25,487 nt of DNA from Thermoplasmata archaeon (lineage in GTDB: Archaea > Thermoplasmatota > Thermoplasmata > RBG-16-68-12 > JAJISG01): NCBI GenBank assembly GCA_046756285.1, contig JBHHWA010000001.1, positions 1 through 25,487 on the forward strand, read 5' to 3'. The notes beneath the pieces are model-generated. The model was given only the letters and a program-made list of their open reading frames with translations. It was not told where the DNA came from and did not search any database. Positions 831-21,503 of the stretch are shown here, piece by piece (within the stretch, counting starts at the first letter, position 1; every line of letters begins with the position of its first letter). Both the position numbers and the translations under genes were made by a program.

Positions 831-3800
831 ATGGCCAGGCTCTCAGATGGGGGGCGTCGCACGCTGCAGAGACGAAAGCTGGGCCATTCCGGGGTCGCGG
901 AGGTCCTCGGGACCATCCTGGTCCTGCTGATCACCGTCATCATCTTCTCGAGCATCGTGCTCTGGGTCTTCACCCTTCCCGCGCCCAGGGCGGGGGTCAA
1001 CGTCTCCTTCAGTGGGTTCCTATCCGGCAGCTACGTGGGCGGGATTTGGAACGGGGCTGATGTTCAGCTCAACCACTTGGGAGGCCAAGACCTTCACGAG
1101 GGGAGCACGGGAGTATACCTAACGATTGACAACACGACGGAGGTCCTGAAGACGCAGGGCACCTTCTTCGACGGAGTCAGTGTCAAGGAATACGGAGTGA
1201 AGGGGCCCGATGCCACGTGGAACGTCGGAGAGACGTGGACATACCTGAACGAGAGCATCCCCCAGGATGCGAATGTCTCCGTTATGGTCGTGGACCTCGA
1301 ACGGGGCCTACTCCTCTGGCGGAAACCGCTCCTCGGAGCCCCGGGCACGCTGGCCCCCATCTTCCTCGACAAGTGGGTGGACTCTGCCCCGGCGACGGCC
1401 ACGAGGGACCCCGTAACGCCTGACGACAGGTTCACAATCTTCGCCAAAGTGACCGATCCCGACGCAGATCTCAGCCCCGAATCCGTCTGGGGCTACCTGA
1501 CCTTCGGAATCGGCGGCACGCCCCTCGGGTACGTCCAGTTGCGAGATGACGGGAACCCCTTGGTTGGAGACCTCATCGCCGGCGATGGGGTCTACACCCG
1601 TACGCTGAGTTACCAGGCCCAGAAAAAGTGGGACGGGGGCATCATCATCCTCAACGCGACCGACGACGGAGGACGAGGGACCCAGACTAGGCTCATCCTG
1701 AAGGTTCTGGACACGGGAACCTCCACGCAGGTCGGCGGTCCCGGCTCGCTCGGTTTTGGCTCTGCTACCCAGCGATACGAGATCTTCGAGGAGAGCGATT
1801 GGGATTCGCTCCGCTGGGAGGCCACGGCGACCCGGAGCTTCACGAAAGGCCAAGGCGTGGTGGTGGTCGTAGCCACGAAGAAGATCGTCAGCCCAGACTT
1901 GCGCAACACTTTCCTGCTGTGGGATCCCTCTAACAATCGGGAGGTCGTGTATAGCGACCCCCCCTACACGAACCCCGTTACAGGAAGTTCCGTTCCCTCC
2001 ACGACGGACGCCTTTGTGCTGGCGGAATTCGTCAGCGGTTTCTACGTCTACGAGTACCGTTTCACCACTACAAGCGCGGCCCACGGGTTCGACGGATTCC
2101 AGTTGCAATTCGGACACTATCCCCTCGAGTTCGAGTTGATCACAAGCCAGACCCCTGCTCCGGAAAACAGGCTCTACGTGACCGATGCCATCCAGGTGAC
2201 CGATGCCGCCGGCGGAAGCCCCGACTACCCGAGGGTGGAGACCTATGAGGACGCGGCCCACACGATCTCCGCGACGGCCTTCAACTTCACCGAGACGATG
2301 TACGTGAAGGTGTTCGTAGGGAGCACCGATGGAAGCTTTGACGTCGGAAACGTCGTCATATCCGACTTCTTTGGGAACCTTCCCATCTGGGCATCCCCGG
2401 GGACCACCCCAGTGAGCGTCGCCCTCATCAATGACACCATCAGCTACGCCTTCTCCGTGGATCTCTCCAAACCCAACCTGGATCCCTGGAACTTTGGGAC
2501 GGTCTCCTACAACCTGGCTGTTATGAATGTCCAGGACGCAGACGAGAACTATGGCCGGGTCTGGGGACAGATTCAGGTCACCGGTCCGCGCTGGAAATTG
2601 GACATCGCAATGGGCCTCTTTTCGACCGCACAACAGAACTTTGACCTGGCAATCTACGGGGACTTCTTCGACAACGTGGAAGGCTGGACCGAGTATCCCT
2701 ACGAGACCTTCCTCGCATCCCCGGGGAGGAAGGCGCCAGACAACCCTATCACATCGCAGGTATTGGGCGACCTCGACGGGGACGGTGACCTCGACATTCT
2801 CTCAGGGACGAAGAACGGCGAGGTCTGGTGGTATCGGAACCGAGATGGGAAGGCCCACTCTCTGAGTCGCACTGTCATCGACACACTCACATCGACTGTA
2901 AGCGGGGCCGCCGTCGGGCACGTCGACGCGGACACTGATCTGGATGCGGCGGTGGGGACCACCACGGGAGACGTATGGTGGTACCGGAACGACGGGTCCT
3001 GGTCTCCCAACTTCGTGGACAACACGGGGGCCGGGGTCTCCGCCCTGCAGCTAGCCGATGTCAATGGAGACGGCGCCGCGGACCTGATTGTCGGCCTCGA
3101 CGCGGGACCGAACAGCGTGCGGGTTTACCTCAACAACGGAGGGGGCGTGTTCGGGACGGTGACGACCACGGAGACCCTCATGAACGCCGACGTGTTGACC
3201 CCGGGCCACGGAACCGTGGGCGGGTCCTTCCTGCTCACAACCGCCAGCGACAACTTGTACCAGCAGGTGGAAGAGGTGGGCTCGGACGGCTTCGTAGCCG
3301 CATTCGAGGCGGCCGGACTGGCCTCGACGGTCCAAGGGACCTTCCTCGACACCTACGCGGCCGATGGCGTCGTTGAAGTCCTCACCGAGGGGGAGGCCCT
3401 TCCGCGGTACACCCTGGGCTTCCCCGGCCATCGCTACCTGTTCCCCAACATGACCGCGACCGCCTCTGAATCCTTCGAGATCCACTTCGTCGGCCACGTC
3501 AGCTCTGGCTCCGAGCCCTTCGCGGTCGGTTGGTCAAAGGACGGGCTTACCGTCGACTGGCTGAGCGGGTTGATTACCGGGCTGACACCGGGGGAGTACA
3601 TCTGGCGTCTCTCCGGAGTGGACTGGAGTGACGAAACCCTCTTTCTTCACATCATGGACGTCGACGATAGCCCGACCGATCGCAACACCGACGAGCAGCT
3701 CACGAGTCTCTCCGTCGACCTACTCTACATCTTGCAACCCGAGAGCGGCAGCATCAGCAGCCTCGCGAAGGTGTGGAGGTCGTCCACCATCCCGGGGGGG

Positions 3801-4619: not shown

Positions 4620-4629
4620 GGCCATTGCA

Positions 4630-4650
4630 CCCTCCTCAGGGAGGGGTTTC
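4630..4650 (+). terminator. Possible terminator hairpin after paralog 1
   Basis: CCCTCC-TCAG-GGAGGG (6-bp stem) followed by GTTTC, 11 nt after the stop; weak evidence in GC-rich DNA. Confidence 0.25.
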
Positions 4651-4689
4651 TGCCGAGCCTCGGCGGGTGGCTGATACGGCCCTGGTTCC

Positions 4690-4697
4690 TTTATATA
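4690..4697 (+). promoter_or_regulatory. TATA box (TTTATATA) of the HTH regulator gene
   Basis: Begins 30 nt upstream of GTG4720. Confidence 0.6.
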
Positions 4698-4719
4698 GAA
4701 GGTTATTTATAGTCAAGAT

Positions 4720-5658
4720 GTGGACCGGGCCCAGCTTCTGATGGAGGCGCGCGATCTTCTCGCGCACACCGGCTTCTTCGTCAGCGAGCAACATTGGAGC
4801 CGGGGCCTGAGCTTCGACCTCGCCGCCCGTCGCGACGATGTGCTCCTGTTGGTCAAGGTCCTCCTCAATGTGGACGCCCTGAGCCGGGAGGCGGCCCGGG
4901 AGCTGAAGGCCATCGCCTACAGCCTCGACGCCGCCACCCTTCTCGTGGGCCTGAAGAGCAGCAGCGGGGCCCTCGAACAGGGCGTTGTCTACTCGCGCTT
5001 CGGCATCCCGATCGCCACCCCCAAGACGCTCCAGGAGTTCCTGGAGGAGGGCGTCCCTCCCTTCATCTTCTCGGCTCCTGGCGGTCTCTACGTTCGCCTC
5101 AACTCCGACGTCCTGCGTCGGGTCCGGGAGGAGGTGGGCATCTCCCTGGGGCAGATGGCCGAGGTGGCCCATGTCTCCCGACGCACGATTCAGATGTACC
5201 TGGACGGCATGAGCGCCACGGTCGAAGCGGCGTCCCGCCTGGAGGAGTTCCTCAACGAGCCCCTCGTGCTTCCCCTGGACCCCTTCGGCTCGCCGGACGA
5301 GGCGGCCGGCCGATCCCGCCGTCCCTCGCCCGCAAAGGACTTTCACGGGATGATCCGAGGTCTTCTCACCAAGTTGGGGTACGACGTCTTCCTCACCCAG
5401 CGATCCCCCTTCGACGCCATCACGAAGGACGAGGCGATTCTCTTCCTCGCTGGGATGGATAGGCAGGAGCGTGCCCTTCGTCGGAAGGCGGAGGTCGTGG
5501 CCAACCTGTCCAAGGTGGTGGAGAAGGAACCCATCATCTTCGTGTCCCGGCGGGAGAAGATCAGCCTGCGCGGGGTTCCCATCATCGACGCCTTAGAGCT
5601 CCGCAAATTGCGGGAGCGGGGGGAGATGGTGGAGCTCGTCGAGGAACGAAAGGAGTAG
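4720..5658 (+). CDS. Conserved archaeal Cro/C1-type HTH transcriptional regulator (COG1395/PRK04140-like)
   Basis: SFDLAARRDDVLLLVKVLLNVD N-terminus, GVVYSRFGIP, GGLYVRL, HTH region LRRVREEVGISLGQMAEVAHVSRRTIQMY, then RSPFDAI. This pattern is typical of the family. Confidence 0.88.
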   Translation: MDRAQLLMEARDLLAHTGFFVSEQHWSRGLSFDLAARRDDVLLLVKVLLNVDALSREAARELKAIAYSLDAATLLVGLKSSSGALEQGVVYSRFGIPIATPKTLQEFLEEGVPPFIFSAPGGLYVRLNSDVLRRVREEVGISLGQMAEVAHVSRRTIQMYLDGMSATVEAASRLEEFLNEPLVLPLDPFGSPDEAAGRSRRPSPAKDFHGMIRGLLTKLGYDVFLTQRSPFDAITKDEAILFLAGMDRQERALRRKAEVVANLSKVVEKEPIIFVSRREKISLRGVPIIDALELRKLRERGEMVELVEERKE

Positions 5659-5661
5659 ACC

Positions 5662-6732
5662 TCAGCGGGGGCCCGAGGCGACCTTCGACCTGCGCTTCGC
5701 GGCGGAGGCCTTGGGCCGTCTCCCCTTCTTCCCTCCCTTGGGCGGTTGTCTCTTCCTCGGACTCACCACCTTCTTCTTGGGACTGACCGCCTTCTTCTTC
5801 GGCGTCGCGGTCCTCTTCTTGGGAATCGCTGCCTTCTTGAACACGAAGTAGAGCCGAGACGGTTGCTCCCCGCGACCACGAAGGGCCAAGGCACGAATGT
5901 GACAGTACACCTTCGTCCCGCTGGCCTTCGTGAAGAAGGCCTTCAACCCCTCCGACATCTCTCCGTTCACGAGGGGCTTCTTGCCCACGAAGTCCATCTC
6001 CGCGAGCAGACGACCACGGTCATCCTTGGCCTTCAGGACCCGGGCCCAGGGCTTCCCATGGAGCTGGTCCTCCTTCCACCCGAGGAACTTCGCGCTCGGT
6101 GGAGACAGCCCGCGGACCCGCATTTCGCCGTCCACCTTGATGGCCGCGTCGGCAAGGCTCTCCGCCAGGTCCTCCAACTTTCGAAAGGCGCGATGGGACT
6201 CATCCTGGAGCCGTGCGTTCTCCACGGCCGTGGCCATCTGGTTGCCGATGCCACTGACCACGTTGATTTCCTTGCTGGTGAAGTAGTGGCGGGACGTGGT
6301 GCTATCCAGGGTCATCAGCCCGACGGCCTTCCCCTTGTACACCAGGGGGACGATCAGCATGGACTTGAGTTGCCAGGCTCGGATAATCTTCTGGGGAAGG
6401 AGGTCCTCCTGGGGCAGGTCCCGGACGACGGAGGGGAGCTTCTGGGTGATCACCTTGTTCACGAGTTTGGGGACCTCGGCGTGGCTGAGCTGGCGGTCCA
6501 TGAGGACCTGGGCAAAGGCGTCCCGCGGGCAGTAGGCCACCGCCGGGATCAGGAGCTGATTCCGGGGATCGTCGAGGAAAACCGCGGCCCGGTCCACCTT
6601 CACGAGCTGCGGGGAGATGCGCACGACCGTCCGAAGCACCTCCGAGAGATCGGAGAGGTTGCTCACCATCTCCGAGACGCCGATGAGGGCCGCCAGAATT
6701 TGGGTCTCACCCAGATTCCTCTCGTCGAACAT
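5662..6732 (-). CDS. GAF + PAS-like sensor protein with a Lys/Arg-rich (S/T)PKK-repeat C-terminal tail and no kinase domain
   Basis: GAF: DLSEVLRTVV...VDRAAVFL...KSMLIVPLVYKGKAVGLMTLDS...QMATAVENARL. PAS-like: LAESLADAAIKVDGEMRV...FLGWKEDQLHGKP. The last 58 aa contain 25 K/R and no D/E. Confidence 0.85.
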   Translation of the reverse strand: MFDERNLGETQILAALIGVSEMVSNLSDLSEVLRTVVRISPQLVKVDRAAVFLDDPRNQLLIPAVAYCPRDAFAQVLMDRQLSHAEVPKLVNKVITQKLPSVVRDLPQEDLLPQKIIRAWQLKSMLIVPLVYKGKAVGLMTLDSTTSRHYFTSKEINVVSGIGNQMATAVENARLQDESHRAFRKLEDLAESLADAAIKVDGEMRVRGLSPPSAKFLGWKEDQLHGKPWARVLKAKDDRGRLLAEMDFVGKKPLVNGEMSEGLKAFFTKASGTKVYCHIRALALRGRGEQPSRLYFVFKKAAIPKKRTATPKKKAVSPKKKVVSPRKRQPPKGGKKGRRPKASAAKRRSKVASGPR

Positions 6733-6876
6733 GGGGACGGCGAATTATGCCTGGCCGCTGCGCAAAAAGCTTTCGTGGTGGTTATCAGGTGTGGCCAAGG
6801 GCCCCGCCATCTTCTCCAACCCACACGCTCGCCGACAGGAAAACCCTTTACAGATTGCCGGCTAGGCTCGAGGGCC

Positions 6877-7176
6877 ATGGACGCCGTGTTTCTGTTCCCG
6901 AAGGAGGCCGCCTCGCGAAGTCGCGAGATCTTGGAGGACGACCTCATCAGCCGTCAGAGCGTGACGTTGCGCGATGCGCGCTCCTTGGGCATGGAACGGG
7001 ACGGGACCCTCGTGTTCATCCAGGGGGACGCGGCGGCCATCGAACGTTTTGAGACCCTCGCGGAAGAGGCCGCAGAGCGGCTGGCGGAGGACGAGGCCGC
7101 GCCGCTGACGGCCCGCCTTCGGAAGGAGGAGGAGGACGCCGCGGAGGGGGTGGGCCTCCTCTTCGGGGGAACGTAG
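6877..7176 (+). CDS. Small acidic archaeal hypothetical protein (99 aa)
   Basis: 3' part of the 5746-7176 ORF from ATG6877: MDAVFLF...DDLISRQSVTLRDARSLG...EEEDAAEGVGLLFGG. TTTACA about 30 nt upstream; divergent from the GAF gene. Resembles a short conserved archaeal family (recognition only, family not named). Confidence 0.75.
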   Translation: MDAVFLFPKEAASRSREILEDDLISRQSVTLRDARSLGMERDGTLVFIQGDAAAIERFETLAEEAAERLAEDEAAPLTARLRKEEEDAAEGVGLLFGGT

Positions 7177-7272
7177 TCGCGAGTCCGTACCTGGCCTCGA
7201 AACCTCCTCCCGTTCTCAGGCCTGAATCCCTGGATGTACCCCTTTTTATCGGAGGACCTCCTGGGAATTGCC

Positions 7273-8529
7273 GTGCGTGGCCGCCCCGCGCAAGTCTCGG
7301 CGCTTCGGACCGCTCTGGGGGTCATCTGGCTCATCGCCCTCATCCTGTTTCTGGTCTACCTCGCCATCAGTCTTGCCGCCCTCCTATGGATTAGCCCCCT
7401 CATTGTGGACGGCATCATCGGAGGCACGTGCCCTGAGGGGCTGGATTGCAGGGGCTTCTTCTTCTGGATCAATCCGCTGAACCCGAACTTTCTGGAGGTC
7501 ATCAGGCTAGGCGGGACGGGCCTCCTGACCTGGTTCTTCATCGTACTCACCGTGATCTTCGGGATTGTCCTCTATCTGGCTCTCTTCTACGCCAGGCGGA
7601 CCTACCGCGACATCCGTCTGCCGCCGGAGCGTGTCGACGAGAAGCTCGCCTCCCGCAGCCCCATCGTGGCCGTGGGACAGGTCTTCATGGCCATTCTCTT
7701 CTTCGACACCGTCTATCTCCTGATCATTCTGCCCCTCTTGGGCGTCGTCCCGGAGGTCCCTCAAATCGATCCAGAGTGGTATTTCCTCTACATCGTGGTG
7801 AACGCCACCGTTTGGGAGGAGCTGGCATTCCGTGTCCTTCTCATCGGGCTCCCCATGGTCCTCGCCTCCATGGTCACCCGCCTCTCCGATGTGGTCTCCG
7901 GCCAGCGTGTGCAGGGGGAGGGCCGAGGTCGCTACCTCGCAGGGCCCTTCAAGTACCTCCTCGGCGGGCACGTACGCGAGGGCTCGCCTCGGTCCGCGAT
8001 CATCGTCGGGGCGGCCCTTGTCTTCGTCTCCGCGATCATCTTCGGCTACCTCCACGTGCCGGGATCGGGCGCCTGGCGGTTCGTGCTCGCCTTCGTATCG
8101 GGCCTGGCCATGGGCTATCTTTTTCTGCGCTACGGCATCGTGGCCTCCATCCTCTTTCACTTCTCCATCAACTCTCTCGGCGTTCTGGGCGGCGTGGCAG
8201 TGGCAAGCCTCGGGTCGGCGCTCTTTGTGGGGCTGCTGTACTGGGCGCTTGTCGCCTTCGGTGCCGGCTTCTTTGCGTACTACACGAAGCGGGTGGGGGG
8301 TTTCCTGCTGCGCCCCTTTCCCAGGCCCCGCCGACGGCCCGCCCCCGCCCCGCGGTCGAACCCGCGCCCGACCAACCCGGGGGGCGAGCTCCTCCTCTTC
8401 CCGGTCACCTGCCCCGAGTGCGGCGGCCATGAGGCCGAGTACCAGGACGGAGCCCTGGTCTGTTCACAGTGCGGGACGAGGATTTCGACCCCCGGGCCGG
8501 ATCGGGGAGGGAGCGAGGTTCTCGACTAG
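7273..8529 (+). CDS. CPBP (CAAX/Abi-type) intramembrane glutamic metalloprotease with a C-terminal zinc ribbon
   Basis: Multiple TM helices; motifs NATVWEELAFR, IFGYLH, SILFHFSIN; C-terminal CPECGG...CSQCG. Start set at GTG7273 because TTTTTAT lies about 30 nt upstream (ORF track start is 7234). Confidence 0.85.
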   Translation: MRGRPAQVSALRTALGVIWLIALILFLVYLAISLAALLWISPLIVDGIIGGTCPEGLDCRGFFFWINPLNPNFLEVIRLGGTGLLTWFFIVLTVIFGIVLYLALFYARRTYRDIRLPPERVDEKLASRSPIVAVGQVFMAILFFDTVYLLIILPLLGVVPEVPQIDPEWYFLYIVVNATVWEELAFRVLLIGLPMVLASMVTRLSDVVSGQRVQGEGRGRYLAGPFKYLLGGHVREGSPRSAIIVGAALVFVSAIIFGYLHVPGSGAWRFVLAFVSGLAMGYLFLRYGIVASILFHFSINSLGVLGGVAVASLGSALFVGLLYWALVAFGAGFFAYYTKRVGGFLLRPFPRPRRRPAPAPRSNPRPTNPGGELLLFPVTCPECGGHEAEYQDGALVCSQCGTRISTPGPDRGGSEVLD

Positions 8530-8859
8530 GCCTTGGAGATCATCCGAGACCACCGTCACGCAGATGTCGCCTAAGGGGGCGTGGGCGGAGAAGGACACCC
8601 GTCCAGCGTAGGCCGCCTGCTTGTTCAGATAGAAGACCAGGCGATTCCCTTGAATGGATCCGGTCAACAGTTCCCGAGCGGAGTCCCGTATGTGCTGCCG
8701 CTGGAGGAGCTCGGCGAGTCGATCGAGGGACCCTGCCCTCCCCGTGATTCGTTCCCCGACGGTGAGTTGCGCCCCGGGGAAGATGTTGAGCACGGCCTGC
8801 TGCACCTTCCCGGTGGTCTCCGTCGCCCGGCAGGGCGTTTCCACGAGCGCCTCGTGCAC
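8464..8859 (-). CDS. UPF0201 / RNA-binding domain protein (COG1931-like)
   Basis: TETTGKVQQAVLNIFP, LLQRQHIRDSAR, FYLNKQAAYAGRVSF, PLGDICVTV signature; overlaps the 3' end of the CPBP gene by 66 bp. Confidence 0.85.
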   Translation of the reverse strand: MHEALVETPCRATETTGKVQQAVLNIFPGAQLTVGERITGRAGSLDRLAELLQRQHIRDSARELLTGSIQGNRLVFYLNKQAAYAGRVSFSAHAPLGDICVTVVSDDLQGLVENLAPSPIRPGGRNPRPAL

Positions 8860-8935
8860 GCTTCCCCATCCGCCGACCGGCTAAAGGTTGACGCGTCGCG
8901 AACCTTCTTTAACACGCCCTTCCATCCGGGGCGGA

Positions 8936-10387
8936 ATGCGGGAGGACCTTCTCTCACTCGCCATGGAGTCGGGCGTCCTCCTGGAACCCGAGTTGGCGGA
9001 CTACCTCGCGGGGCGCGCCCACCCCGTCGATAGCCTGCTAGCCATCCTAGACGCGGTGAACCCTCGCCCCCTGGTCCTCACGCTGGAGGAGATCCGGGCC
9101 CTGAACCCGGTGCTTCCTGAGTCTCAGGCCACGCCCGCCTCCGCGCCCGTTGCGGCCCGTATGCGACGCGACCGATCCGGGACCCGCCGGGAGGACCACG
9201 ATCCCGACGTGGTCGTCCTCCAAGACATCACCGGCCGCTCCACATGCACCGGAGAGATGCGGGACTTCTCCCGCTACTTCGACCACCGGTACAAGGCCCT
9301 CTCCTCTCTCCTGCGGGGGAGGCGGGAACTCGTGGGGGCCGTGTCCATCAGCCGCGCCCTCCGCATGGCCCGGGAGGTCCGCGTGATCGGCATCGTCCAG
9401 TCCGTGAAGCGGACCCGGACGGGGAACTACCTGCTCCTCATCGAGGACCAGGAGGCGTCCTGTCAGGTCTTGGTCCCGAGCGAGGGTCCCGGTGTCGACG
9501 GCGCCCCCGTGCCTGACGAGGTCCTCGGGGTCGTGGGTCGCCCCTGGAAGGACGGCATCCTTCTCGCCGAAGAGATCGTGCGGCCGGACATACCCGCCTC
9601 CCACGCCTTCCGCGGGGCGGACGAGGCTGTCAGTGCCGCCTTCATCTCCGACATCCACGTGGGAAGCCGCCTGTTCCTCCGGGACAAGTGGGACCGATTC
9701 GTCCGCTGGTTGGAGACCGAGGAGGCCTCCCGGATCAAGTACCTCGTCGTCGTGGGCGACGTCGTCGATGGCATCGGGGTCTACCCGCGACAAGACGAGG
9801 ACCTGGCCGTGGATGACGTGTACCGGCAGTACGAGGAGGTCGCCGACATGCTGGGCGCCCTCCCGGACGACCTGCAGGTGATCGTTCTCCCGGGCAATCA
9901 CGACGCGACGCGTCCTGCCGAGCCCCAGCCCGCGCTGTCTGAGGCAATCCAGAAAGCCTTCCCCGACGGGGTCCTGTTCGTCGGCAATCCGGCCCTCCTC
10001 CGCCTCCACGGCGTCGACGTGCTCTGCTATCACGGCAAGAGCATGGACGACCTGGTGACGAGCATCCCGGGCGTCACCTACGACCGTCCTCTGGCAGGGA
10101 TGGTGGAGATGCTGAAGCGGCGCCACCTGGCCCCCTCATACGGGGGCAAGACGCCGCTGGCGCCGGAACGAGCCGACCACCTGATCGTCGACCCTCCCCC
10201 CTCTGTCTTCGCCACGGGCCACGTCCACGGGTTCGGGATCGGGGAGTACCGGGGCATCCGCCTCCTTAACGCCTCGACCTGGCAGGCGCAGACCGCCTTC
10301 CAGCGGATGCACAACATCACGCCCAAGCCGGGGATGGTCCCTACTGTGGACCTCCAGACCGGGGAGGCCTTCGCCCAGGCCTTCTGA
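8936..10387 (+). CDS. polB: DNA polymerase D small subunit DP1 (3'-5' exonuclease)
   Basis: OB-fold region (VRVIGIVQSV...LLIED) and phosphoesterase motifs SDIHVG, GDVVDG, PGNHD, YHG, GHVH, plus HLAPSYG. ATG8936 preferred (TTTAAC about 28 nt upstream) over TTG8888. Confidence 0.95.
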   Translation: MREDLLSLAMESGVLLEPELADYLAGRAHPVDSLLAILDAVNPRPLVLTLEEIRALNPVLPESQATPASAPVAARMRRDRSGTRREDHDPDVVVLQDITGRSTCTGEMRDFSRYFDHRYKALSSLLRGRRELVGAVSISRALRMAREVRVIGIVQSVKRTRTGNYLLLIEDQEASCQVLVPSEGPGVDGAPVPDEVLGVVGRPWKDGILLAEEIVRPDIPASHAFRGADEAVSAAFISDIHVGSRLFLRDKWDRFVRWLETEEASRIKYLVVVGDVVDGIGVYPRQDEDLAVDDVYRQYEEVADMLGALPDDLQVIVLPGNHDATRPAEPQPALSEAIQKAFPDGVLFVGNPALLRLHGVDVLCYHGKSMDDLVTSIPGVTYDRPLAGMVEMLKRRHLAPSYGGKTPLAPERADHLIVDPPPSVFATGHVHGFGIGEYRGIRLLNASTWQAQTAFQRMHNITPKPGMVPTVDLQTGEAFAQAF

Positions 10388-10435
10388 AGGTCCGAGGGAA
10401 ATGCCCTTCTAGGCCCGCCCGCTACGGCGATTCGC

Positions 10436-11137
10436 ATGCGGATCCTCGCCGTCGGCGACATCCACGGGAAGGAACACCTGGACGCCTTGCGGGCGTCCCT
10501 TCGCGAAGCCCCGGCTGCGGACCTAATCCTCCTCGCAGGCGACATCACCCAGCGCAACGACGTGGACCTATACGGCCACGTGCTGGAGGCCTTCGAGGAG
10601 GTCGGGACCGCCCCAATCCTCGCCGTGTTCGGCAACCACGAGTGGTCCGACTCCCACGCGGAGTACCGGATGGCCTACCCCATCGCCTTTCTGGAGGAGG
10701 AGGCGCAGACCCTGGGGGTCGCGGACCGTACAATCCGGGTCGTGGGGAGCACGGGCGTGCTCGATCGGCCCACGTGGTGGCAACGCACGAACCTCCCGCA
10801 GATCACCGGAGAGTATACCCGAAGGCTCCAGGCACTCGATCACCTTCTGGAGGAGGACGGGTTTCGGATTCTCCTTACGCACTACGCCCCCACCTACCGC
10901 ACCCTCGTCGGGGAGGGGGAGAGCTATTGGGACCAGCTGGGATCCAAGCGAATGGAGCAGGTTCTCCTGCGCCATCGACCCGATCTCGTCATTCACGGCC
11001 ATGCCCATTTGGGCATCCCCTTCGCCGAGCTCCAGACAGGCCAGACGACCCTGGAGAACTTTGACCGGGAACGCGCAATTCCGATCCACAACGTGGCCTT
11101 TCCCGTTCGGAAGGACGTGACCGTTCTGGATCTGTGA
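10436..11137 (+). CDS. Calcineurin-like metallophosphoesterase
   Basis: GDIHG, AGDI, GNHE, THYAP and HGHAH motifs. Confidence 0.88.
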   Translation: MRILAVGDIHGKEHLDALRASLREAPAADLILLAGDITQRNDVDLYGHVLEAFEEVGTAPILAVFGNHEWSDSHAEYRMAYPIAFLEEEAQTLGVADRTIRVVGSTGVLDRPTWWQRTNLPQITGEYTRRLQALDHLLEEDGFRILLTHYAPTYRTLVGEGESYWDQLGSKRMEQVLLRHRPDLVIHGHAHLGIPFAELQTGQTTLENFDRERAIPIHNVAFPVRKDVTVLDL

Positions 11138-11170
11138 GGCGAAAAGAGACACCCCGTGGGGTCGCCAAGC

Positions 11171-14100
11171 TTAGGCGGAGGGATCGATAACTATGCCGCG
11201 ATCCACGTCCCCGACGTCGATGCTATAGATCCGAGTTCCGAGTTGCTCGATCACGATGATCTTCCAGACGACCCCTTTATCATGGCGATACCAGCGGATG
11301 TACCCATCCTCCGTGGCGATAACGATGTCGTCCCAGTAGTCCCCATCGATGTCGGCCACGCGGAGGCTGCGCACGTCGTCTTGGTTCGTGTGAATGAGCG
11401 TGCGGGTCCAGGTGCCGTCGTTGGCCCACCAGTAGACCCGGTTGTCTTGGGTCCCTGCCGCGATGTCGTAGGTGGAGTCGGCGTCTAAGAAGCCGACGTC
11501 GACGGCGTTGACCCTGCCCGTGGCCGCCAAGCTGACGGAACCCCAGGCAGGGGCGTATAAGACACGGGCCGTGCTGCCCGCCGCGACCACGATGTCGTTG
11601 TCTCCATCGCCGTCCATGTCAGCCACGGCGAGGTCCTCCACCTGGGGACCGACGTGGATCACCTCTTCGTCAGGGAGCGTAATGAAGCGCCGCACGAAGA
11701 TGTGGTCCACGTAGACGGCGTCCAGGTCCGTGGCGTTCGGATCCCGGTTCGTGTCCCGCACCCGCAGGTAGAGAGGCGCGCCTCCAATGATTGTCGGGAG
11801 ATTCGCCGTCTGGTACTCGTTGTCATCCACGGTCTTCGTCACGGTGATGAGCGTAGACCACGGCCCGGCCGGGGCGAGAGAGCCCTCGACGACGAAATCG
11901 TCGAATTCGCTGTTGAGGGTGTGGTGGGCCTCCACGAAGAGCTTGTATGCGTCCCCACCCGCGCCCACGGGGAAGGACCGCCACTGATGCTCCAAACGGC
12001 TCGTCGTGCCCTGCAGGCCGATAACCACGACTACGACCTGGTCGAGAGAGATCCGGGAGGCCATGCTGTCTGTGGCCGAATCCAGGTTGGACATGTCTGT
12101 GTCTTGGAACACGATGTAAAGGTCACCACCGCCAAATCCGGCGGCGCTCAGGTCATAGATCTTCAGTGTCTCCGTGGTTTCCGTTAGGGTGCCCAAGACC
12201 GAAACACCGCCGGCCCCGACCTTGTAACCAATCTCGAAGGCTTCCGATCCATCCCCCTCGCTAATGAAGCCGCTGACGACGAGGAACGCCCGATCGGTCG
12301 GGCCGAGGGGCGCGACATTCCCCATGACGTACTGGTGCCCTGGTTCGGCGCCCCCCGTGCTGTTCCGCATGAGGTAAAGGTCGTCCTCGAACCACCAAAA
12401 CGCGTCGTAGAACTCCTCCTGCAGCTCCTCGTACACGCCGTCATCCGCGTACGTGTCCAGGTAGCTCCCAGAGAAGACGACGTCGAACTCGGAGAGGATC
12501 TCGTTAACGGGGACGTAAAAGTCCCACACCTCGCCCGGGCCGAGGACCTCCTCGATGGCCTCGTACGTGTTGTCCGACACACGCGTGTCCGCGACGGTCC
12601 CGGTGATGTTCCCAAACACCGGCATGTCCGTTTCGAGCGTGTAGTCGGCCGTCAGTTGTGTGCCAAAGACGCCAAACCCGTTGTTACGGTAGATGATGAC
12701 GTCCCCGCCGTCCGTCCCCGCGACGATGTCGTTGAATCCGTCGCCTCCCGCAGGGTAGACGTCGGCGAGCTTGACCACGTTGATGCCCGGTCCCAGGTTG
12801 GCGACGAGGCTCGGGGTCCAGTCGCCGTCGTTGGAGTAGGTCCAAATCTCCCCGGCGCTGGTCCCGATCACGATGTCGTTGTCGGAGTCCCGATCGATGA
12901 GCCCGATCGCTACCGCCTCCACGCTGTCCGCCAGGTTGTCGATTTCGAAGCGGGTCCATTGGCTCCCATCGCCCAAGGTGTTCCGATACCAGAGGACACG
13001 CCCGACCTCGAGTCCGAAGACCGCATCCAGGTCGCTGTCCTCATCCAAGTCTCCGAGGGCCACATCCAGGAAGTCTCCGCCCCCGAAGGGCGGGCTGCCC
13101 CCGCAGAACCAGAGGAAGCAGTCTCTCCGGAAGGACTCCATGACGGTCCGACTCCAGGCCCCGTCATTCTCGTAGAACGTGGCGTACCAGGTCTCGTCGT
13201 TGCCGAAGAGGAAGAACGTGACTTCGTTCAGGGCCGCGATGGCGTCCAGATCCCAGCGGGCCCCACGGACGATGACCTGGGCAGTGAGCGCGTACTCCTC
13301 GTTGAAGTCGGCGATGCGCTTGATGCGGAAGCCGTAGGCGTTGGTCCCGAAGAGCCAGGGATCCAGGTTCGTGGTCGAGAGGTCGACGTTGAAACGGTAG
13401 GAACGGGTGTCGTTGACCGCGCCCGGGCTCACGGGGTCGTTGCCGGGCGTGGCCCAGACCTGGACACCACTCTCATAGTCCGAGATGACCACGTCGCCAA
13501 AGATGAAGCCGGCGTCCGTGTCCCGGACCGTGACTCGGACGTACATTCTGTCTGTCGTGTTGAATGTGTTCGTTGGCTGCGTGTGGGCCGCGTCCGCGAA
13601 GAACTCGACCTTCGGATAGTCGGGCGCGCTGCCATTCTGTTCCGTCACCAGGATGGAATCAACGGTGGCGAACCGGTTGTTGGGGGGAGGTACGTTGTTG
13701 GCCCGGATCTCCATCGACACGGAGTGCGGCCCAACGACCAGCTGGACGCCATCCCATCCGTACGCACTGGAGTTCGTGCTGAAGCGGTGCTCGTAAACGT
13801 AGAAGCCTCCCACGAAGCCGAGGAAGGTGAAGGCTCGCGTGCTGGAGGGAAGGGAGGTCTGTGTCACGGGATCGTTGTATGGGGCGAAGCTGTAGACCTC
13901 CGGCCTCTGGGGGAGCCCCGAGGGGGAATAGAGGAACACGTCGTTTTGGAGATCGGCGTTCTTCAGCTTCTGGCTGGCCACGACGATGACGACGGTCTCT
14001 CCCTTCCGGAAGGTTCGGGTTCCGTTGGCGTTGTAGCCGTTGGTGTCCCACTCCGTCGCGTTGAAGATGTCATACAGCTGGAGGTCGCTCTCGAGGGCCA

Positions 14101-14986
14101 GGCCCTCGGGGCCCTTGAAGGGGAGTCCCCCGCCCAAGTTCAGGACCTCGAAGATGAGGCGCGTCTGCGCTTCGCGGCCGCCCTGGTCCGTGGCGTTGAG
14201 AATGATGATGCCCCCATCCCAGGTCTGCAGCGCGGCGAAGCTCAGGGCCCGACTGAAGACCCCATCTCCCGCGAGGGCGTCTCCGACGTTCGGGTCCCCG
14301 TTGTCCAGGAGCTGGACGTAGCCAAGGGGGGCGCCGAACCCGAAGGTGATGTAGCCCCAGACGGAGGCCGCGTCCAGGTCCCCATCCGGGTCCCCGACGC
14401 GGGCGTAGATCGCAAAGGTATCGTCCACGCCCACGGGGTCGCGGCTCGGGGTCGAGGGCTCCGAGTCAACCCACTTCTCCAGGAAGACGGGCAGGCGCTC
14501 CCCGCCCTCGCCCAGGAGGATCTGGTCCCAAATGACCGTCCCACGGACGACGTCCACGACCAAAACCGACACCTGGGCGGTACGGTTGATGGTCTCGTTC
14601 TCGTAAAACCACGTCTCCCCGATATTCCAGTGGATGTCGGGGCCATCAACGCCGTAGGGCTTCACGCTCACCCCGTCGAAGTGATTGCCCTGCGTCTTGA
14701 GCGTATGAGTGGTCCCGTCGATGGTGAGGTAGACCCGCGTGTTCGTATCGAGCAGGTCGTCGCCCCCGAGGTGGGTCAGGTTGACGTAGGCGCCGGCCCA
14801 GGATCCGGCCACGTACCGCCCCTCGAGGCCGCCATCGATGCCGGCATTCCCCGCGGCCCGGGGCGCGGGGAGGGTGAAGACCCAGAGAACGATGGTGGAG
14901 AAGATGACGACCGTGATCAGGAGGATGAGAATGGTTCCAATGACCTCTGAGACTCCACGATGGTCCAGAGGTCTCCGCGGCAGCAC
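11171..14986 (-). CDS. Giant type IV pilin-like surface protein, paralog 2: class III signal peptide, stalk, FG-GAP propeller with nested insert (1271 aa)
   Basis: GTG start with GGAGGAG SD; HRG|VSEVIGTILILLITVVIFS; LLDNGDPNVGDALAGDGVF; FG-GAP repeats LGDLDEDSDLD, IGLIDRDSDND, LADVYPAGGDGFND, VADMDGDGDND, VGFLDADSTYD, VADIDGDYWDD, and half repeat VGDVDRG. Confidence 0.9.
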   Translation of the reverse strand: MLPRRPLDHRGVSEVIGTILILLITVVIFSTIVLWVFTLPAPRAAGNAGIDGGLEGRYVAGSWAGAYVNLTHLGGDDLLDTNTRVYLTIDGTTHTLKTQGNHFDGVSVKPYGVDGPDIHWNIGETWFYENETINRTAQVSVLVVDVVRGTVIWDQILLGEGGERLPVFLEKWVDSEPSTPSRDPVGVDDTFAIYARVGDPDGDLDAASVWGYITFGFGAPLGYVQLLDNGDPNVGDALAGDGVFSRALSFAALQTWDGGIIILNATDQGGREAQTRLIFEVLNLGGGLPFKGPEGLALESDLQLYDIFNATEWDTNGYNANGTRTFRKGETVVIVVASQKLKNADLQNDVFLYSPSGLPQRPEVYSFAPYNDPVTQTSLPSSTRAFTFLGFVGGFYVYEHRFSTNSSAYGWDGVQLVVGPHSVSMEIRANNVPPPNNRFATVDSILVTEQNGSAPDYPKVEFFADAAHTQPTNTFNTTDRMYVRVTVRDTDAGFIFGDVVISDYESGVQVWATPGNDPVSPGAVNDTRSYRFNVDLSTTNLDPWLFGTNAYGFRIKRIADFNEEYALTAQVIVRGARWDLDAIAALNEVTFFLFGNDETWYATFYENDGAWSRTVMESFRRDCFLWFCGGSPPFGGGDFLDVALGDLDEDSDLDAVFGLEVGRVLWYRNTLGDGSQWTRFEIDNLADSVEAVAIGLIDRDSDNDIVIGTSAGEIWTYSNDGDWTPSLVANLGPGINVVKLADVYPAGGDGFNDIVAGTDGGDVIIYRNNGFGVFGTQLTADYTLETDMPVFGNITGTVADTRVSDNTYEAIEEVLGPGEVWDFYVPVNEILSEFDVVFSGSYLDTYADDGVYEELQEEFYDAFWWFEDDLYLMRNSTGGAEPGHQYVMGNVAPLGPTDRAFLVVSGFISEGDGSEAFEIGYKVGAGGVSVLGTLTETTETLKIYDLSAAGFGGGDLYIVFQDTDMSNLDSATDSMASRISLDQVVVVVIGLQGTTSRLEHQWRSFPVGAGGDAYKLFVEAHHTLNSEFDDFVVEGSLAPAGPWSTLITVTKTVDDNEYQTANLPTIIGGAPLYLRVRDTNRDPNATDLDAVYVDHIFVRRFITLPDEEVIHVGPQVEDLAVADMDGDGDNDIVVAAGSTARVLYAPAWGSVSLAATGRVNAVDVGFLDADSTYDIAAGTQDNRVYWWANDGTWTRTLIHTNQDDVRSLRVADIDGDYWDDIVIATEDGYIRWYRHDKGVVWKIIVIEQLGTRIYSIDVGDVDRGIVIDPSA

Positions 14987-15069
14987 TCGAGCTCCTCCCA
15001 GGAAGGAGGCTTGTTTGCGCTGGCCAGCTTATTTAATCGTTCCCGCGGGATTATCGATGAAGATAGCCA
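14793..15069. repeat. 277-bp perfect direct repeat, copy 1 (promoter, SD and first 194 nt of paralog 2)
   Basis: Base-by-base comparison: identical to 17860-18136 (offset 3067). Confidence 0.93.
15026..15056 (-). promoter_or_regulatory. Promoter of paralog 2 (CGATAATC box and TTAAATAA TATA)
   Basis: Minus strand reads CGATAATC-CCGCGGG-AACG-A-TTAA-ATAA-GCT; SD GGAGGAG at 14993-14999. Confidence 0.7.
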
Positions 15070-15133
15070 CAACCCTCCGGAGCGGCGTATCCGATGGCTC
15101 TTCTGCGTTCCCCCGGGGCGACCTGGGGAGGAG

Positions 15134-15204
15134 TGCCAGTCAAGAACTTCAGGTGGCGAGGACTTGGTATCACGAACCAAATGCCCAGGGAGGAGGAGGG
15201 CCGT
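15134..15204 (+). pseudogene. Decayed duplicate of the signal-peptidase promoter and first 8 codons
   Basis: TGCCAGTCAAGAACTT matches 18201 TGCCAGTAAAGAAGTT (offset 3067). ATGCCCAGGGAGGAGGAGGGCCGT (MPREEEGR) matches 18247 ATGCCCAAGGAGGAGGCACGCCGT (MPKEEARR) at 20/24 nt. The ORF stops at TAG 15241-15243. Confidence 0.75.
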
Positions 15205-15239
15205 ATGCGGGGGAGGGCCTCCACTCCGAGAAGTGCTTG

Positions 15240-18053
15240 TTAGGGCGGCTCGGACCGCCGAATGGCGATCCCTCGGTCCACGTCGCCGATATCCAGCGAG
15301 TTGATGTTCTTGCCGAGATCAGCGATCCACTGGGTGGACCAGGAGATCCCCTTATCGTGGCGATACCAGAGGATATCTCCCGTCTCGGTGCCGACAAGGA
15401 CGTCGTCCCAGAAGTCCCCGTCGATGTCCCCGACCCGTAGGGTATAGACCTTGTCCGCCGAAGGGACTTGGTTGATCGCCGTGCGGTCCCAGGAGCCGTC
15501 GTTGGCAAACCAATGGACGAAGCCCAGTTCATTGCCCGTGACCACGTCCAGAGTCTCGTCGCCGTCGATATGGCCCACGTCCACGGCGAGGACGAGGGAC
15601 CCCGCCGATAGTCTCGCAGAGGAACCCCAACCGGGGCCGTAGGCGACGATGGCATCGGAGCCTCTGGCCAGCACGATGTCATTGTGCCCGTCGCCGTCCA
15701 CGTCGGCCACCGTCAGGTCCTTGATTTCCGCTCCCACCCCGAAGGCCTGGGAGGTCGGGAAGTCACCGAGGCCGTCGTTCTCGTAGATTCGGAGGAAACC
15801 ACTCTTCATCCCCGCCACGATGTCGTTGAACCCGTCGCCCGTGACGTCCGCCAGCTTGATCTCCACGACCTCACTGCCGAGATCCGCCACGAGGGTGCGG
15901 CTCCAGACCCCCGTGTTATAGTAGGCATAGATCTGGCCGAGGACATTGCCCGTCACCACGTCGTTGTCCGTATCCCGGTCGATGCGGCCCGCGTCGACGG
16001 TCCATAAGGCCACGCCCTGGTCGTCAATCTGTATGCGCTGCCAGAAGTTACCCGCTCCGTCCAAGTTTCTGTACCAGAAGAGGGGGGCCACTTCGGCGGC
16101 AGTGACGGCGTCCAGGTCCCCATCCTCGTCCATATCGGCCAAGGTGATGTCGTGGAACGGCCCGCGGCCCCAGGGCGGGTCCGGATCCATGGGCGTGGAC
16201 TGATGGTACTCGATGAGATAGACCGCCCATGGGGGGATGTTCTCGAAGAAGAGGGCATACCACTTCTGGTCGAAGATGGGGTGGCCGAACTCCTCGTTGG
16301 CGGTGACGACGTCCAGCTTCCAACGCGGACCCTGGACCGTCACCTGAGCCGCGAGGGCGTACACCTCGTTGCCATCTCGAATCTCCTTGATACGGAACCC
16401 GTAGGAGTTGATTCCCGGCAACCATGCATCCGCGTTGTTGTTCGAGAGGTCTACAGAGAACGTGTAGTTCCGGATGTCCAGGATGGACAGTGGGCCGATG
16501 GGATCGACACCTGGGGTCGCCCAGATCTGAACGCCGCCGAAGTAGTCGGAGACGAACACGTCTCCGGCGCTCACGGACAGGTCTGTCTCCCGAACGGTGA
16601 CCTTCACGTACATCACGTCCGTGTAGTTGAAGCTCGTCGCTTGTTGGGTGTAGCCCGCGTCCTTGTAGAACGTGAGTCGGGGATAGTCGGGAGAGCCACC
16701 CGCGTCGTCCGTGACGGTGATGGTGTCTGTGGTCGCAAACCGGTTCAGAGGAGGGCCCGCGATGGAGGACTTCAGCTCGATGGTCAGGGGGTACTGCCCG
16801 TAGGCCAGCTGGACCCCGTCGAACCCGGCGTCCGCCGATGTGGTGCTGAACCGGTGCTCGTACACGTAGTAGTCGCCCACGAACTCCACGAAAGAGAACG
16901 CCTTCGTGCTGGAGGGGGTGGTCGTCTCCCCCACGGGCTCGTTATACGGCGGGTCACTATACACGAGGGGGGTGAGCGGGACCACCGAGGGATCGTGCAT
17001 GAAGAAGTCGTTCTTGAAATCCAAGTCCCGTAGGGTCTGGCTCGCCACGACAACCACCACCGTTTGTCCCTTGACGAAGGTTCGCGTGCTCGTGGCATTC
17101 CAGCGGTTGGCATTCCAGTCCGACTCCTCATAAATGTCGAAGCGCTGGACACTCGAGGCGAAGGTCAGGGCCACGGGCCCCGCGGGGTCTGGGATGCTCC
17201 CGGTGTCCACGACCCGGAGAGTGAGGCGCGTCTGCGCTTCGCGGCCGCCCTGGTCCGTGGCGTTAAGGATGATGATCCCCCCATCCCAGCTCAGCATGGC
17301 GGCGAAACTCAGTGAACGACTGAAGACTCCATCTCCGGCCAGGGCGTCTCCGATGTTGGGATCCCCGTTGTCCAGCAGCTGCACGTAGCCAAGCGGCCCG
17401 CCGAATCCGAAGGTCAGGTACCCCCAAACGGAGGCCGGATTGAGGTCCCCATCGGGGTCCCCGACCCGGGCGTAGATCGCGAAGGTGTCGTCCACGGCCA
17501 CGGGATCGCGGCTCAGCGTCGAAGGCTCTGAATCGAACCACTTCTCCAGGAAGACGGGCAGGTGCTCCCCGCCCTCGCCCAAGAGGATTTGGTCCCAGAC
17601 GACCGTTCCGCGGACCACGTCCGCGACCAAAACGCCGACCTCCGCGGTGATGGGGATCGTCTCGTTCTCGTAGGTCCACGTCTCCCCGATATTCCAGTGG
17701 ACGTCGGGACCATCGACGCCGTACGGCTTTACGCTCACGCCGTCAAAGTGACTTCCTTGGGTCTTGAGCGTGTGCGTAGTCCCGTCGATGGTGAGGTAGA
17801 CACGAGTGTTTGGATCCAGCAGATCATCCCCGCCAAGGTGCGTGAGGTTGACGTAGGCCCCGGCCCAGGATCCGGCCACGTACCGCCCCTCGAGGCCGCC
17901 ATCGATGCCGGCATTCCCCGCGGCCCGGGGCGCGGGGAGGGTGAAGACCCAGAGAACGATGGTGGAGAAGATGACGACCGTGATCAGGAGGATGAGAATG
18001 GTTCCAATGACCTCTGAGACTCCACGATGGTCCAGAGGTCTCCGCGGCAGCAC
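15240..18053 (-). CDS. Giant type IV pilin-like surface protein, paralog 3: same architecture but an uninterrupted FG-GAP propeller (937 aa)
   Basis: N-terminus identical to paralog 2; six consecutive FG-GAP repeats plus half repeat IGDVDRG; lacks the ~310-330 aa insert. Confidence 0.9.
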   Translation of the reverse strand: MLPRRPLDHRGVSEVIGTILILLITVVIFSTIVLWVFTLPAPRAAGNAGIDGGLEGRYVAGSWAGAYVNLTHLGGDDLLDPNTRVYLTIDGTTHTLKTQGSHFDGVSVKPYGVDGPDVHWNIGETWTYENETIPITAEVGVLVADVVRGTVVWDQILLGEGGEHLPVFLEKWFDSEPSTLSRDPVAVDDTFAIYARVGDPDGDLNPASVWGYLTFGFGGPLGYVQLLDNGDPNIGDALAGDGVFSRSLSFAAMLSWDGGIIILNATDQGGREAQTRLTLRVVDTGSIPDPAGPVALTFASSVQRFDIYEESDWNANRWNATSTRTFVKGQTVVVVVASQTLRDLDFKNDFFMHDPSVVPLTPLVYSDPPYNEPVGETTTPSSTKAFSFVEFVGDYYVYEHRFSTTSADAGFDGVQLAYGQYPLTIELKSSIAGPPLNRFATTDTITVTDDAGGSPDYPRLTFYKDAGYTQQATSFNYTDVMYVKVTVRETDLSVSAGDVFVSDYFGGVQIWATPGVDPIGPLSILDIRNYTFSVDLSNNNADAWLPGINSYGFRIKEIRDGNEVYALAAQVTVQGPRWKLDVVTANEEFGHPIFDQKWYALFFENIPPWAVYLIEYHQSTPMDPDPPWGRGPFHDITLADMDEDGDLDAVTAAEVAPLFWYRNLDGAGNFWQRIQIDDQGVALWTVDAGRIDRDTDNDVVTGNVLGQIYAYYNTGVWSRTLVADLGSEVVEIKLADVTGDGFNDIVAGMKSGFLRIYENDGLGDFPTSQAFGVGAEIKDLTVADVDGDGHNDIVLARGSDAIVAYGPGWGSSARLSAGSLVLAVDVGHIDGDETLDVVTGNELGFVHWFANDGSWDRTAINQVPSADKVYTLRVGDIDGDFWDDVLVGTETGDILWYRHDKGISWSTQWIADLGKNINSLDIGDVDRGIAIRRSEPP

Positions 18054-18136
18054 TCGAGCTCCTCCCAGGAAGGAGGCTTGTTTGCGCTGGCCAGCTTATT
18101 TAATCGTTCCCGCGGGATTATCGATGAAGATAGCCA
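17860..18136. repeat. 277-bp perfect direct repeat, copy 2 (promoter, SD and first 194 nt of paralog 3)
   Basis: Identical to 14793-15069. Confidence 0.93.
18093..18123 (-). promoter_or_regulatory. Promoter of paralog 3 (identical to that of paralog 2)
   Basis: Lies within the 277-bp repeat. Confidence 0.7.
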
Positions 18137-20419: not shown

Positions 20420-20564
20420 GAAGGACTCCCCTGAGAAGGCGGCTCCCCCAAAAGGTCCGCCCCCTTGGACCGACGGCATAACCCGCGTCTCTACAAAAGG
20501 CTTTGTTTCGACGGCTGCCGAACAACTTTTCTGGAGGGTCTGGCGGTACTGGCCTCGGCGGGAA

Positions 20565-21374: not shown

Positions 21375-21503
21375 GCTCGCATCATGGCAGGCTAGGTACA
21401 ATAGCTTGGCCCGCACCATCCGCAAGCCGTCATCCTGGTCGACTCAGGCCTGGCACGCACCGCGCAGGGCTTTTATCGAAAGAGGGAATGGAAGTGCAGA
21501 ACC

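Follow-up and report, generated by a model that had tools for sequence, protein, structure and literature searches.

What is a type IV pilin N-terminus doing at the head of proteins that are 937-1271 residues long? This question is raised by a 25,487-nt stretch of contig JBHHWA010000001.1 (hereafter the window, meaning the whole stretch that was analysed), which comes from a metagenome-assembled genome (MAG) of an uncultured Thermoplasmata archaeon recovered from hydrothermal-vent metagenomes (1.4 Mb, 74% complete, 346 contigs). The original prediction, made from the letters of the DNA alone, described three giant paralogous genes here, and all three open reading frames (ORFs) are indeed present and open: P1 (831-4619, plus strand, 1262 aa), P2 (11171-14986, minus strand, 1271 aa, with a GTG start) and P3 (15240-18053, minus strand, 937 aa). 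P2 and P3 are 64% identical across their shared parts, and P1 and P2 are 45% identical over their full length. The architecture common to the three is an archaeal type IV pilin module, followed by three immunoglobulin-like (Ig-like) beta-sandwich domains and a closed seven-bladed FG-GAP propeller. We are confident that the proteins are extracellular, that they are held by the pilin-type N-terminal helix, and that they present a Ca2+-type propeller on an Ig-like stalk; they are probably processed by a prepilin peptidase of the A24 family, and they may be incorporated into filaments and act in adhesion. Our tentative answer is that P1-P3 are modular type IV pilins whose propeller would be displayed via type IV pilus machinery, a reading that we slightly prefer to that of a membrane-anchored coat.

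The pilin-type N-terminus that had been proposed for these proteins proved to be more extensive than a targeting signal. The Pfam family Pilin_N (PF07790) matched above its cut-off of 25.2 bits in P1, P2 and P3 (29.0, 41.9 and 40.7 bits, respectively), and the domain could be placed at residues 20-101 of P1 (888-1133, plus strand), at 14714-14959 (minus strand; domain score of 47.1 bits) in P2 and at 17781-18026 (minus strand; 45.8 bits) in P3. Each protein begins with a short charged leader that ends in Gly at position -1 and is followed by a hydrophobic helix, as in class III signal peptides, and the family alignment predicts cleavage of P1 between G21 and V22 (nt 893/894). Among 42 family members the motif G|V-S/A-E-V-I/L-G-T-I-L is nearly invariant, with the Gly at -1 conserved in more than 90%. 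In an AlphaFold2 (AF2) model of P3, which was built on a 46-sequence family alignment and reached a mean predicted local distance difference test score (pLDDT) of 88.1, the helix spans residues 10-38 and leads through a short, low-confidence Pro-rich linker into a small beta-sandwich head (residues 49-157). This helix is the best-conserved part of the protein (invariant G17, L20, L22, T25, V26 and F29). Moreover, a profile of residues 1-165 matched 8fj5, a solved archaeal pilus subunit with 20 chains in the entry, over residues 7-125 (E 1e-5), and it also matched Natrinema PilA2 (8gi2) and 9myg. Since the alignment to 8fj5 begins in the cleavage region and extends across the head, NLTHxGGE motif included, the N-terminus is a whole pilin module rather than a signal peptide alone, and its head is homologous to those of filament-forming pilins. 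Genomes of the order encode only 2-5 Pilin_N proteins each, of which the giant is the best-scoring one.

Could the leader nevertheless remain uncut, so that the N-terminus is an ordinary signal-anchor and the resemblance to pilins merely ancestral? Position -2 is not kept as Lys or Arg and varies among S, R, K and A, a Glu occupies position +3 in place of the usual Pro, and TIGR02537 passes its 20-bit cut-off in P2 and P3 only, with P1 failing it. Set against these features, the Gly at -1 together with VSEVIGTIL is almost invariant in roughly 100 sequence clusters, which is hard to explain without a role in recognition or assembly, and the peptidase is universal in the order; we therefore regard an uncut leader as very unlikely. 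Cleavage and subsequent polymerisation of P1-P3 would depend on genes outside the window, which, as had been noted, holds no assembly ATPase, platform protein or prepilin peptidase. A search of the remaining genome located these genes, namely one for an A24 prepilin peptidase, two for PilB-like ATPases and one for a PilC platform. The peptidase candidate is a polytopic protein of 296 aa that matches Arc_PepC_II with 41.4 bits (cut-off 29.9) and, weakly, Peptidase_A24 and FlaK; by eye, DWRTRRV and GGADAK stand where A24 peptidases hold their two catalytic Asp residues. Both ATPases are of the PilB3_C type, are FlaI-like and score under the equivalog cut-off, while the platform belongs to the T2SSF family. 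One small pilin of 164 aa is also present, and no archaellin was found in this 74%-complete MAG. A close relative carries a pilus locus in the order DUF7289-like pilin-like gene, PilB, PilC, PilC and PilB2, and peptidase and platform were recovered from all 30 genomes of the order with at least 90% completeness. As a separate observation, the pilus-locus genes (DUF7289-like pilin-like, PilB, PilC and PilB2, on contigs C38 and C185) have the most extreme GC content at third codon positions (GC3) in the MAG, at 0.94-0.97, similar to that of EF-1alpha (0.92) and set against a genome mean of 0.75; these genes may be very highly expressed.

Beyond the pilin module, the P3 model contains three further beta-sandwich domains, at about residues 167-280, 300-450 and 459-575, the second of which resembles the repeated Big_3-like Ig domains of other giant proteins. 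The acidic stalk that was first recognized by a DDG/DNG..GD..AGDG motif could be confirmed, with the motif at about residues 229-252 (a region with a below-threshold match to NCBIfam 'choice_anch_X') and the proteins having pI values of 4.15-4.32 and zero to two Cys residues. Their supposed richness in N-x-S/T sequons could not: counts of 8, 13 and 6 compare with 7.4±2.5, 7.5±2.6 and 4.4±2.0 expected from shuffles, and thus are not above chance. The C-terminal region gave FG-GAP_3 (PF13517) scores of 89.8, 45.7 and 72.0 bits for P1, P2 and P3 against a cut-off of 26.9 (P1 also matches FG-GAP), contains three to four Ca2+-type DxDxDGxxD loops per protein, and yielded profile matches to integrin alpha, ITFG2 and the lectin PVL. 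In P3 (about residues 577-931; 15261-16325, minus strand) its 28 strands, at residues 581-924, form seven four-stranded blades that close upon themselves, and a second AF2 model, of P2 residues 572-1271 (pLDDT 88.6; predicted template modelling score 0.74), likewise closes into a seven-blade propeller of the integrin alpha type, as had been anticipated. The propeller would be expected to bind Ca2+. An ESM Atlas cluster also contains 94 bacterial flagellins, with Flagellin_N and Flagellin_C, that bear FG-GAP_3 propellers, an independent case of a filament subunit showing this propeller.

The paralogs differ mainly in these C-terminal heads, in agreement with the proposal that they present alternative propellers. 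For example, P1 and P2 carry about 330 residues between FG-GAP blades that are missing from P3. The P2 insert (about residues 776-1110; 11657-12661, minus strand) is modelled as an all-beta module, with several strands of 17-20 residues, that emerges between strands of the fourth blade and leaves the propeller intact; the P1 insert (about residues 771-1096; 3141-4118, plus strand) was delimited from the family alignment and has no Pfam or Protein Data Bank (PDB) sequence match. Searches for relatives of the insert gave nothing significant in Pfam, a best E value of 0.12 among PDB profiles and a maximum of 0.84 among Atlas features, and structure searches with the two-domain model of propeller plus insert were dominated by the propeller. 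The nearest homologs of P2 (P0007 and P0008) are 88% and 78% identical to it over the C-terminal half that comprises propeller and insert (aa 572-1271). In a 1607-aa homolog (P0011) the same inter-blade site holds DUF2341 (residues 1071-1143) and the concanavalin-like lectin domain Laminin_G_3 (1186-1337), which makes the site an apparent hot spot for the gain of lectin-like modules.

Such modules raise the alternative that the giants form a pseudopilus or a bindosome-like capture device, or are enzymes, with the propeller and its insert binding or cleaving a substrate, such as polysaccharide, close to the membrane so that it can be taken up. FG-GAP/VCBS propellers do occur in esterases, lyases and lectins, a concanavalin-like lectin domain occupies the insertion site of the one homolog, and the order has been proposed to recycle complex organic carbon (PMC9239135). 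As evidence to the contrary, no catalytic family was detected in any domain by Pfam, NCBIfam or the insert searches, and no transporter genes lie near the giants in the window or in related loci. We consider this function improbable.

The survey of Thermoplasmata altered our view of what kind of system this is. When presence was scored with residues 1-600 of P3, which include the stalk, 73 of 79 genomes of the order, which is probably RBG-16-68-12 ('Ca. Yaplasmales'), contained the giant, as did 24/24 high-quality genomes and all ten of its ten genera, mostly as a single copy. It is a near-universal core gene of the order, and the three copies are special to this genome. Therefore, of the three-gene adhesin system first envisaged, the three genes stand, and the notion of a sporadic system gives way to that of a core gene unlinked to pilus genes. 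A profile search of 1.8 billion representatives returned 98 clusters at E<=1e-30, and in nearly all full-length matches the stalk starts at residue 150-180, directly after a pilin-sized module. Elsewhere in the class the complete architecture occurs in one further family (25/25 genomes). In many other Thermoplasmata families the first ~200-280 residues recur at the start of different giant ORFs (1100-3300 aa); two large families are nearly or fully without these N-termini (1/48 and 0/42). The order is uncultured and globally distributed (soils, aquifers, marine sediments and vents), and all of its well-assembled genomes keep the giant, which is therefore probably central to the contact of these cells with their surroundings.

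Gene neighbourhood gave a similarly conserved picture. Among 80 related loci, 55 retain at least one gene of a shared neighbourhood, and about 20 of these retain the whole block, in the order Cdc6/Orc1, putative signal peptidase I, metallophosphoesterase, small subunit of PolD, Rce1-like protease (with a zinc ribbon), GAF-PAS protein, giant and helix-turn-helix (HTH)/PDDEXK gene. This origin-proximal block of about 15 kb is kept order-wide, from soil to vent lineages, and occupies 4720-11137 and 18247-23819 of the window, where P1 adjoins the HTH gene and P2 and P3 lie between the phosphoesterase and the signal peptidase. The latter (18247-19194, plus strand) is a 315-aa membrane protein that adjoins Cdc6 across the order and displays SGSM..., ...HRAL... 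and GD.N..DD patterns; it matches the archaeal signal peptidase I model TIGR02228 at E 2.3e-5 (24 bits against a cut-off of 51.85), has no Pfam match, and is probably a divergent Sec11-type signal peptidase.

Both sets of results bear on a rival explanation in which the pilin helix, once cleaved, is only a membrane anchor, and the ~20-nm stalk-propeller molecules make up the main outer coat of the cell, as an S-layer substitute or an integrin-like receptor layer. We hold this to be possible, if somewhat doubtful. It would account for a core gene that is usually single-copy, for an origin-proximal synteny that soil and vent lineages share and in which pilus genes have no part, for the very large size of the proteins, and for the Pilin_N-headed giants of other families. 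No PGF-CTERM or transmembrane C-terminal anchor was found by Pfam, NCBIfam or inspection of P1-P3, whose C-termini are hydrophilic and devoid of any hydrophobic segment, so that the helix is left as sole anchor with no C-terminal sorting signal. Class III signal peptides on archaeal surface proteins that do not form filaments are established, as for the sugar-binding proteins of Sulfolobus. In addition, Thermoplasmatales possess an unidentified, disordered glycoprotein layer of ~20 nm that replaces the S-layer (PMC12448462), although that layer is known from a different order. Several further points speak against a coat. A protein that was only to be anchored would have no need of a complete, conserved pilin head with homology to filament subunits; no lattice-forming or S-layer domain was detected (Pfam, NCBIfam), and P1-P3 do not qualify as archaeal S-layer proteins. 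Moreover, codon usage and GC3 in the giants (GC3 of 0.81-0.85, as compared to 0.92 for EF-1alpha) are not of the top-expressed type. This test is not robust: the codon-usage percentile of the giants is 75-85 when EF-1alpha serves as reference and 17-74 when thermosome fragments do, the score largely follows GC3, and the MAG lacks the ribosomal spc operon. The thermosome genes themselves are all broken at contig ends (C274, C254, C5 and C214), with GC3 values of 0.64-0.84, and the ribosomal L14 gene is also missing; the MAG is fragmented and perhaps heterogeneous. The broader proposition that in Yaplasmales, and with other heads in many other Thermoplasmata, the pilin module was repurposed as the universal anchor of the main envelope protein, with a single-copy, origin-proximal giant pilin giving an integrin-like, Ca2+-dependent coat in place of the S-layer, appears unlikely to us.

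A family of short paralogs links the shared carrier end to a pilus locus. These proteins of ~520-546 aa, 51-67% identical among themselves, have residues 8-284 in common with the giants and end in a conserved, hydrophobic, WYAQVIPFIGMVVY-like tail. In one genus they occupy the GAF-HTH slot, or lie 6.5-8 kb from PilB2, or stand beside the pilin-like gene of the locus; in seven loci the short paralog is near PilB2 or the pilin-like gene.

We therefore return to the modular-pilin reading that we tentatively favour. According to this model, a short basic leader ending in Gly would be cut by the A24 prepilin peptidase encoded elsewhere, and the remaining hydrophobic helix and small beta-sandwich head would constitute a complete pilin module carrying a rigid stalk of three Ig-like domains, topped by a Ca2+-binding, integrin-like propeller. 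In P1 and P2 an extra beta-rich module would sit in a blade loop, like the I-domain in integrin alpha. Display would rely on the PilB-PilC-PilC-PilB2 locus, with the giant serving as a low-abundance or tip subunit, and the propeller would bind a ligand that is probably a surface protein or a glycan. One carrier end would be common to all three copies, with different heads. In support of this model we cite the complete and conserved pilin module, the universal machinery, the small number of other pilins, the pilus-linked short paralog, the gain of lectin and DUF2341 domains at the insertion site, the modular pilins of bacteria as a precedent and the FG-GAP flagellins.

A number of observations weigh on the other side. 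At 937-1271 aa the proteins are far above the size of any pilin known to polymerise, and we know of no archaeal tip complex. Near-universal, mostly single-copy conservation is what one would expect of a housekeeping envelope protein. In ~55 loci the region within 10 kb of a full-length giant holds no pilus ATPase or platform genes, and the giant sits instead in the conserved Cdc6-PolD-GAF block; core-gene status and an origin-proximal position are no less compatible with a housekeeping surface protein than with a pilus accessory. The linkage of short paralogs to pilus genes may reflect a single event, because it was seen in one genus, and the variable -2 position of the leader counts here too. 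Finally, the four public runs that hold the locus come from one vent study, and all are DNA and none RNA.

How did this genome come to hold three copies? In the family tree P1 falls among its own orthologs from other MAGs, separate from P2, and a long branch leads to P3, the sister of the P2 clade; forms without the insert have at least two separate origins. A perfect 277-bp repeat, with one copy at 14793-15069 and the other at 17860-18136, covers the 5' end, leader and promoter of P2 and P3, respectively, and protein identity between the two is 83-100% up to residue 240 and 43-64% beyond. Because the repeat is perfect and the N-terminal identity so high although the tree puts P3 outside the P2 clade, these sequence comparisons indicate an old duplication and, later, gene conversion at the 5' carrier end (the first ~240 codons). 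All three genes are preceded by a CGATAATC box (789-819, 15026-15056 and 18093-18123), and ~10 nt after it comes a TATA-like element, TTAA(A)TA, which for the promoter-like box of P1 (plus strand, read directly) is TTTAATAG. The ATG of P1 is only ~16-23 nt from this element, and its transcript may therefore be leaderless; the leaders of P2 and P3 contain GGGAGGAG, which is Shine-Dalgarno-like and in P2 stands ahead of the start. In Logan unitigs from vent runs X1 and X2, the P3 region (15040-17900) is covered ~60% as deeply as P2 and the flanks, and low-depth junctions 13079>16349 and 14317>17409 hint at P2/P3 hybrid alleles. These data, of which contig depth is a weak measure, suggest that the tandem copy is polymorphic in the population.

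With regard to earlier work, our literature search found no paper that describes this family or that brings together type IV pilins, FG-GAP and archaea, and the genome papers on the order that it returned make no mention of pili, adhesins or S-layers. None of the results named in advance as fatal to the original prediction (a genome devoid of the peptidase or pilus machinery, a propeller that does not close, an already characterised family) was obtained. The names given in databases are all automatic ('VCBS repeat', 'type IV pilin', 'flagellin-like'). A recent census of archaeal type 4 filament systems describes PilY-like and Ig-rich adhesins in pilus loci and leaves FG-GAP proteins and propellers unmentioned; similarly, a 2016 census (PMC4858521) does not mention propellers, nor are Thermoplasmata named in its main text. 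What is new here is an order-wide family of giant archaeal modular pilins, together with its distribution, its origin-proximal synteny and its triplication in this genome. It would be the largest pilin-type protein yet proposed and would join a prokaryotic filament module to an integrin-like, propeller-on-legs design. It is also a concrete candidate for the surface layer of S-layer-less Thermoplasmata, and if these proteins do form a coat, the kind of protein behind their 'exterior protein layer' would have been identified.

Several known systems resemble P1-P3 in part. The original prediction drew a comparison with PilY1, which holds as an analogy only: Pfam and NCBIfam gave no PilY1/PilC family match, and P1-P3 are themselves pilin-type. 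PilY1/PilC tip adhesins and the archaeal PilY-like/DUF2341 adhesins (arCOG03511, arCOG03508; PMC13705601, PMC4858521) are likewise large, propeller-bearing proteins proposed to functionalise a pilus, and DUF2341, reported in PilY-like adhesins of archaeal pilus loci (PMC4858521), is shared with one member of the giant family. However, PilY1 is a non-pilin protein docking on minor pilins, whereas P1-P3 carry their own pilin module, and archaeal PilY-like genes lie inside pilus loci whereas the giant genes lie outside. The sugar-binding proteins of the Sulfolobus bindosome are similar in having a prepilin-peptidase-type leader, a large extracellular protein and a gene away from assembly genes, but they have a signal peptide and solute-binding domain only, whereas P1-P3 keep the full pilin head. 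For the propeller, the nearest systems are integrin alpha and the fungal FG-GAP lectins PVL and AAL. P1-P3 are not whole integrin alpha subunits, because their topology is reversed: the sole hydrophobic helix, and thus the anchor, is N-terminal and the propeller C-terminal. In addition, they have no known beta-subunit partner, and their insert is all-beta and in the fourth blade, whereas that of integrin alpha is a vWA domain between blades 2 and 3. The closest counterparts are the modular type IV pilins of bacteria, such as PilB and PilC of Streptococcus sanguinis and CofB, which are believed to be located at the tips of pili (Raynaud et al. 2021, PMC8179133). P1-P3 differ from these in using archaeal Pilin_N instead of an N-methyl domain, in being two to three times larger, in having three Ig-like stalk domains and in being encoded outside the pilus locus, and their place in a filament is conjectural. 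We describe them as an archaeal counterpart, because the definition of modular pilins covers bacterial IPR012902 and Pfam detects no bacterial N-methyl domain in them. Bacterial modular pilins explain how simple pili gain functions, and their archaeal counterpart has so far been unstudied. Indeed, the design is alike in both: an N-terminal pilin module acts as carrier, and bulky C-terminal modules that are not specific to pili, ligand-binding in S. sanguinis and Ig-like and FG-GAP in P1-P3, follow it, with a metal-dependent, eukaryote-like adhesion domain in each case, vWA in the S. sanguinis pilins and FG-GAP in P1-P3.

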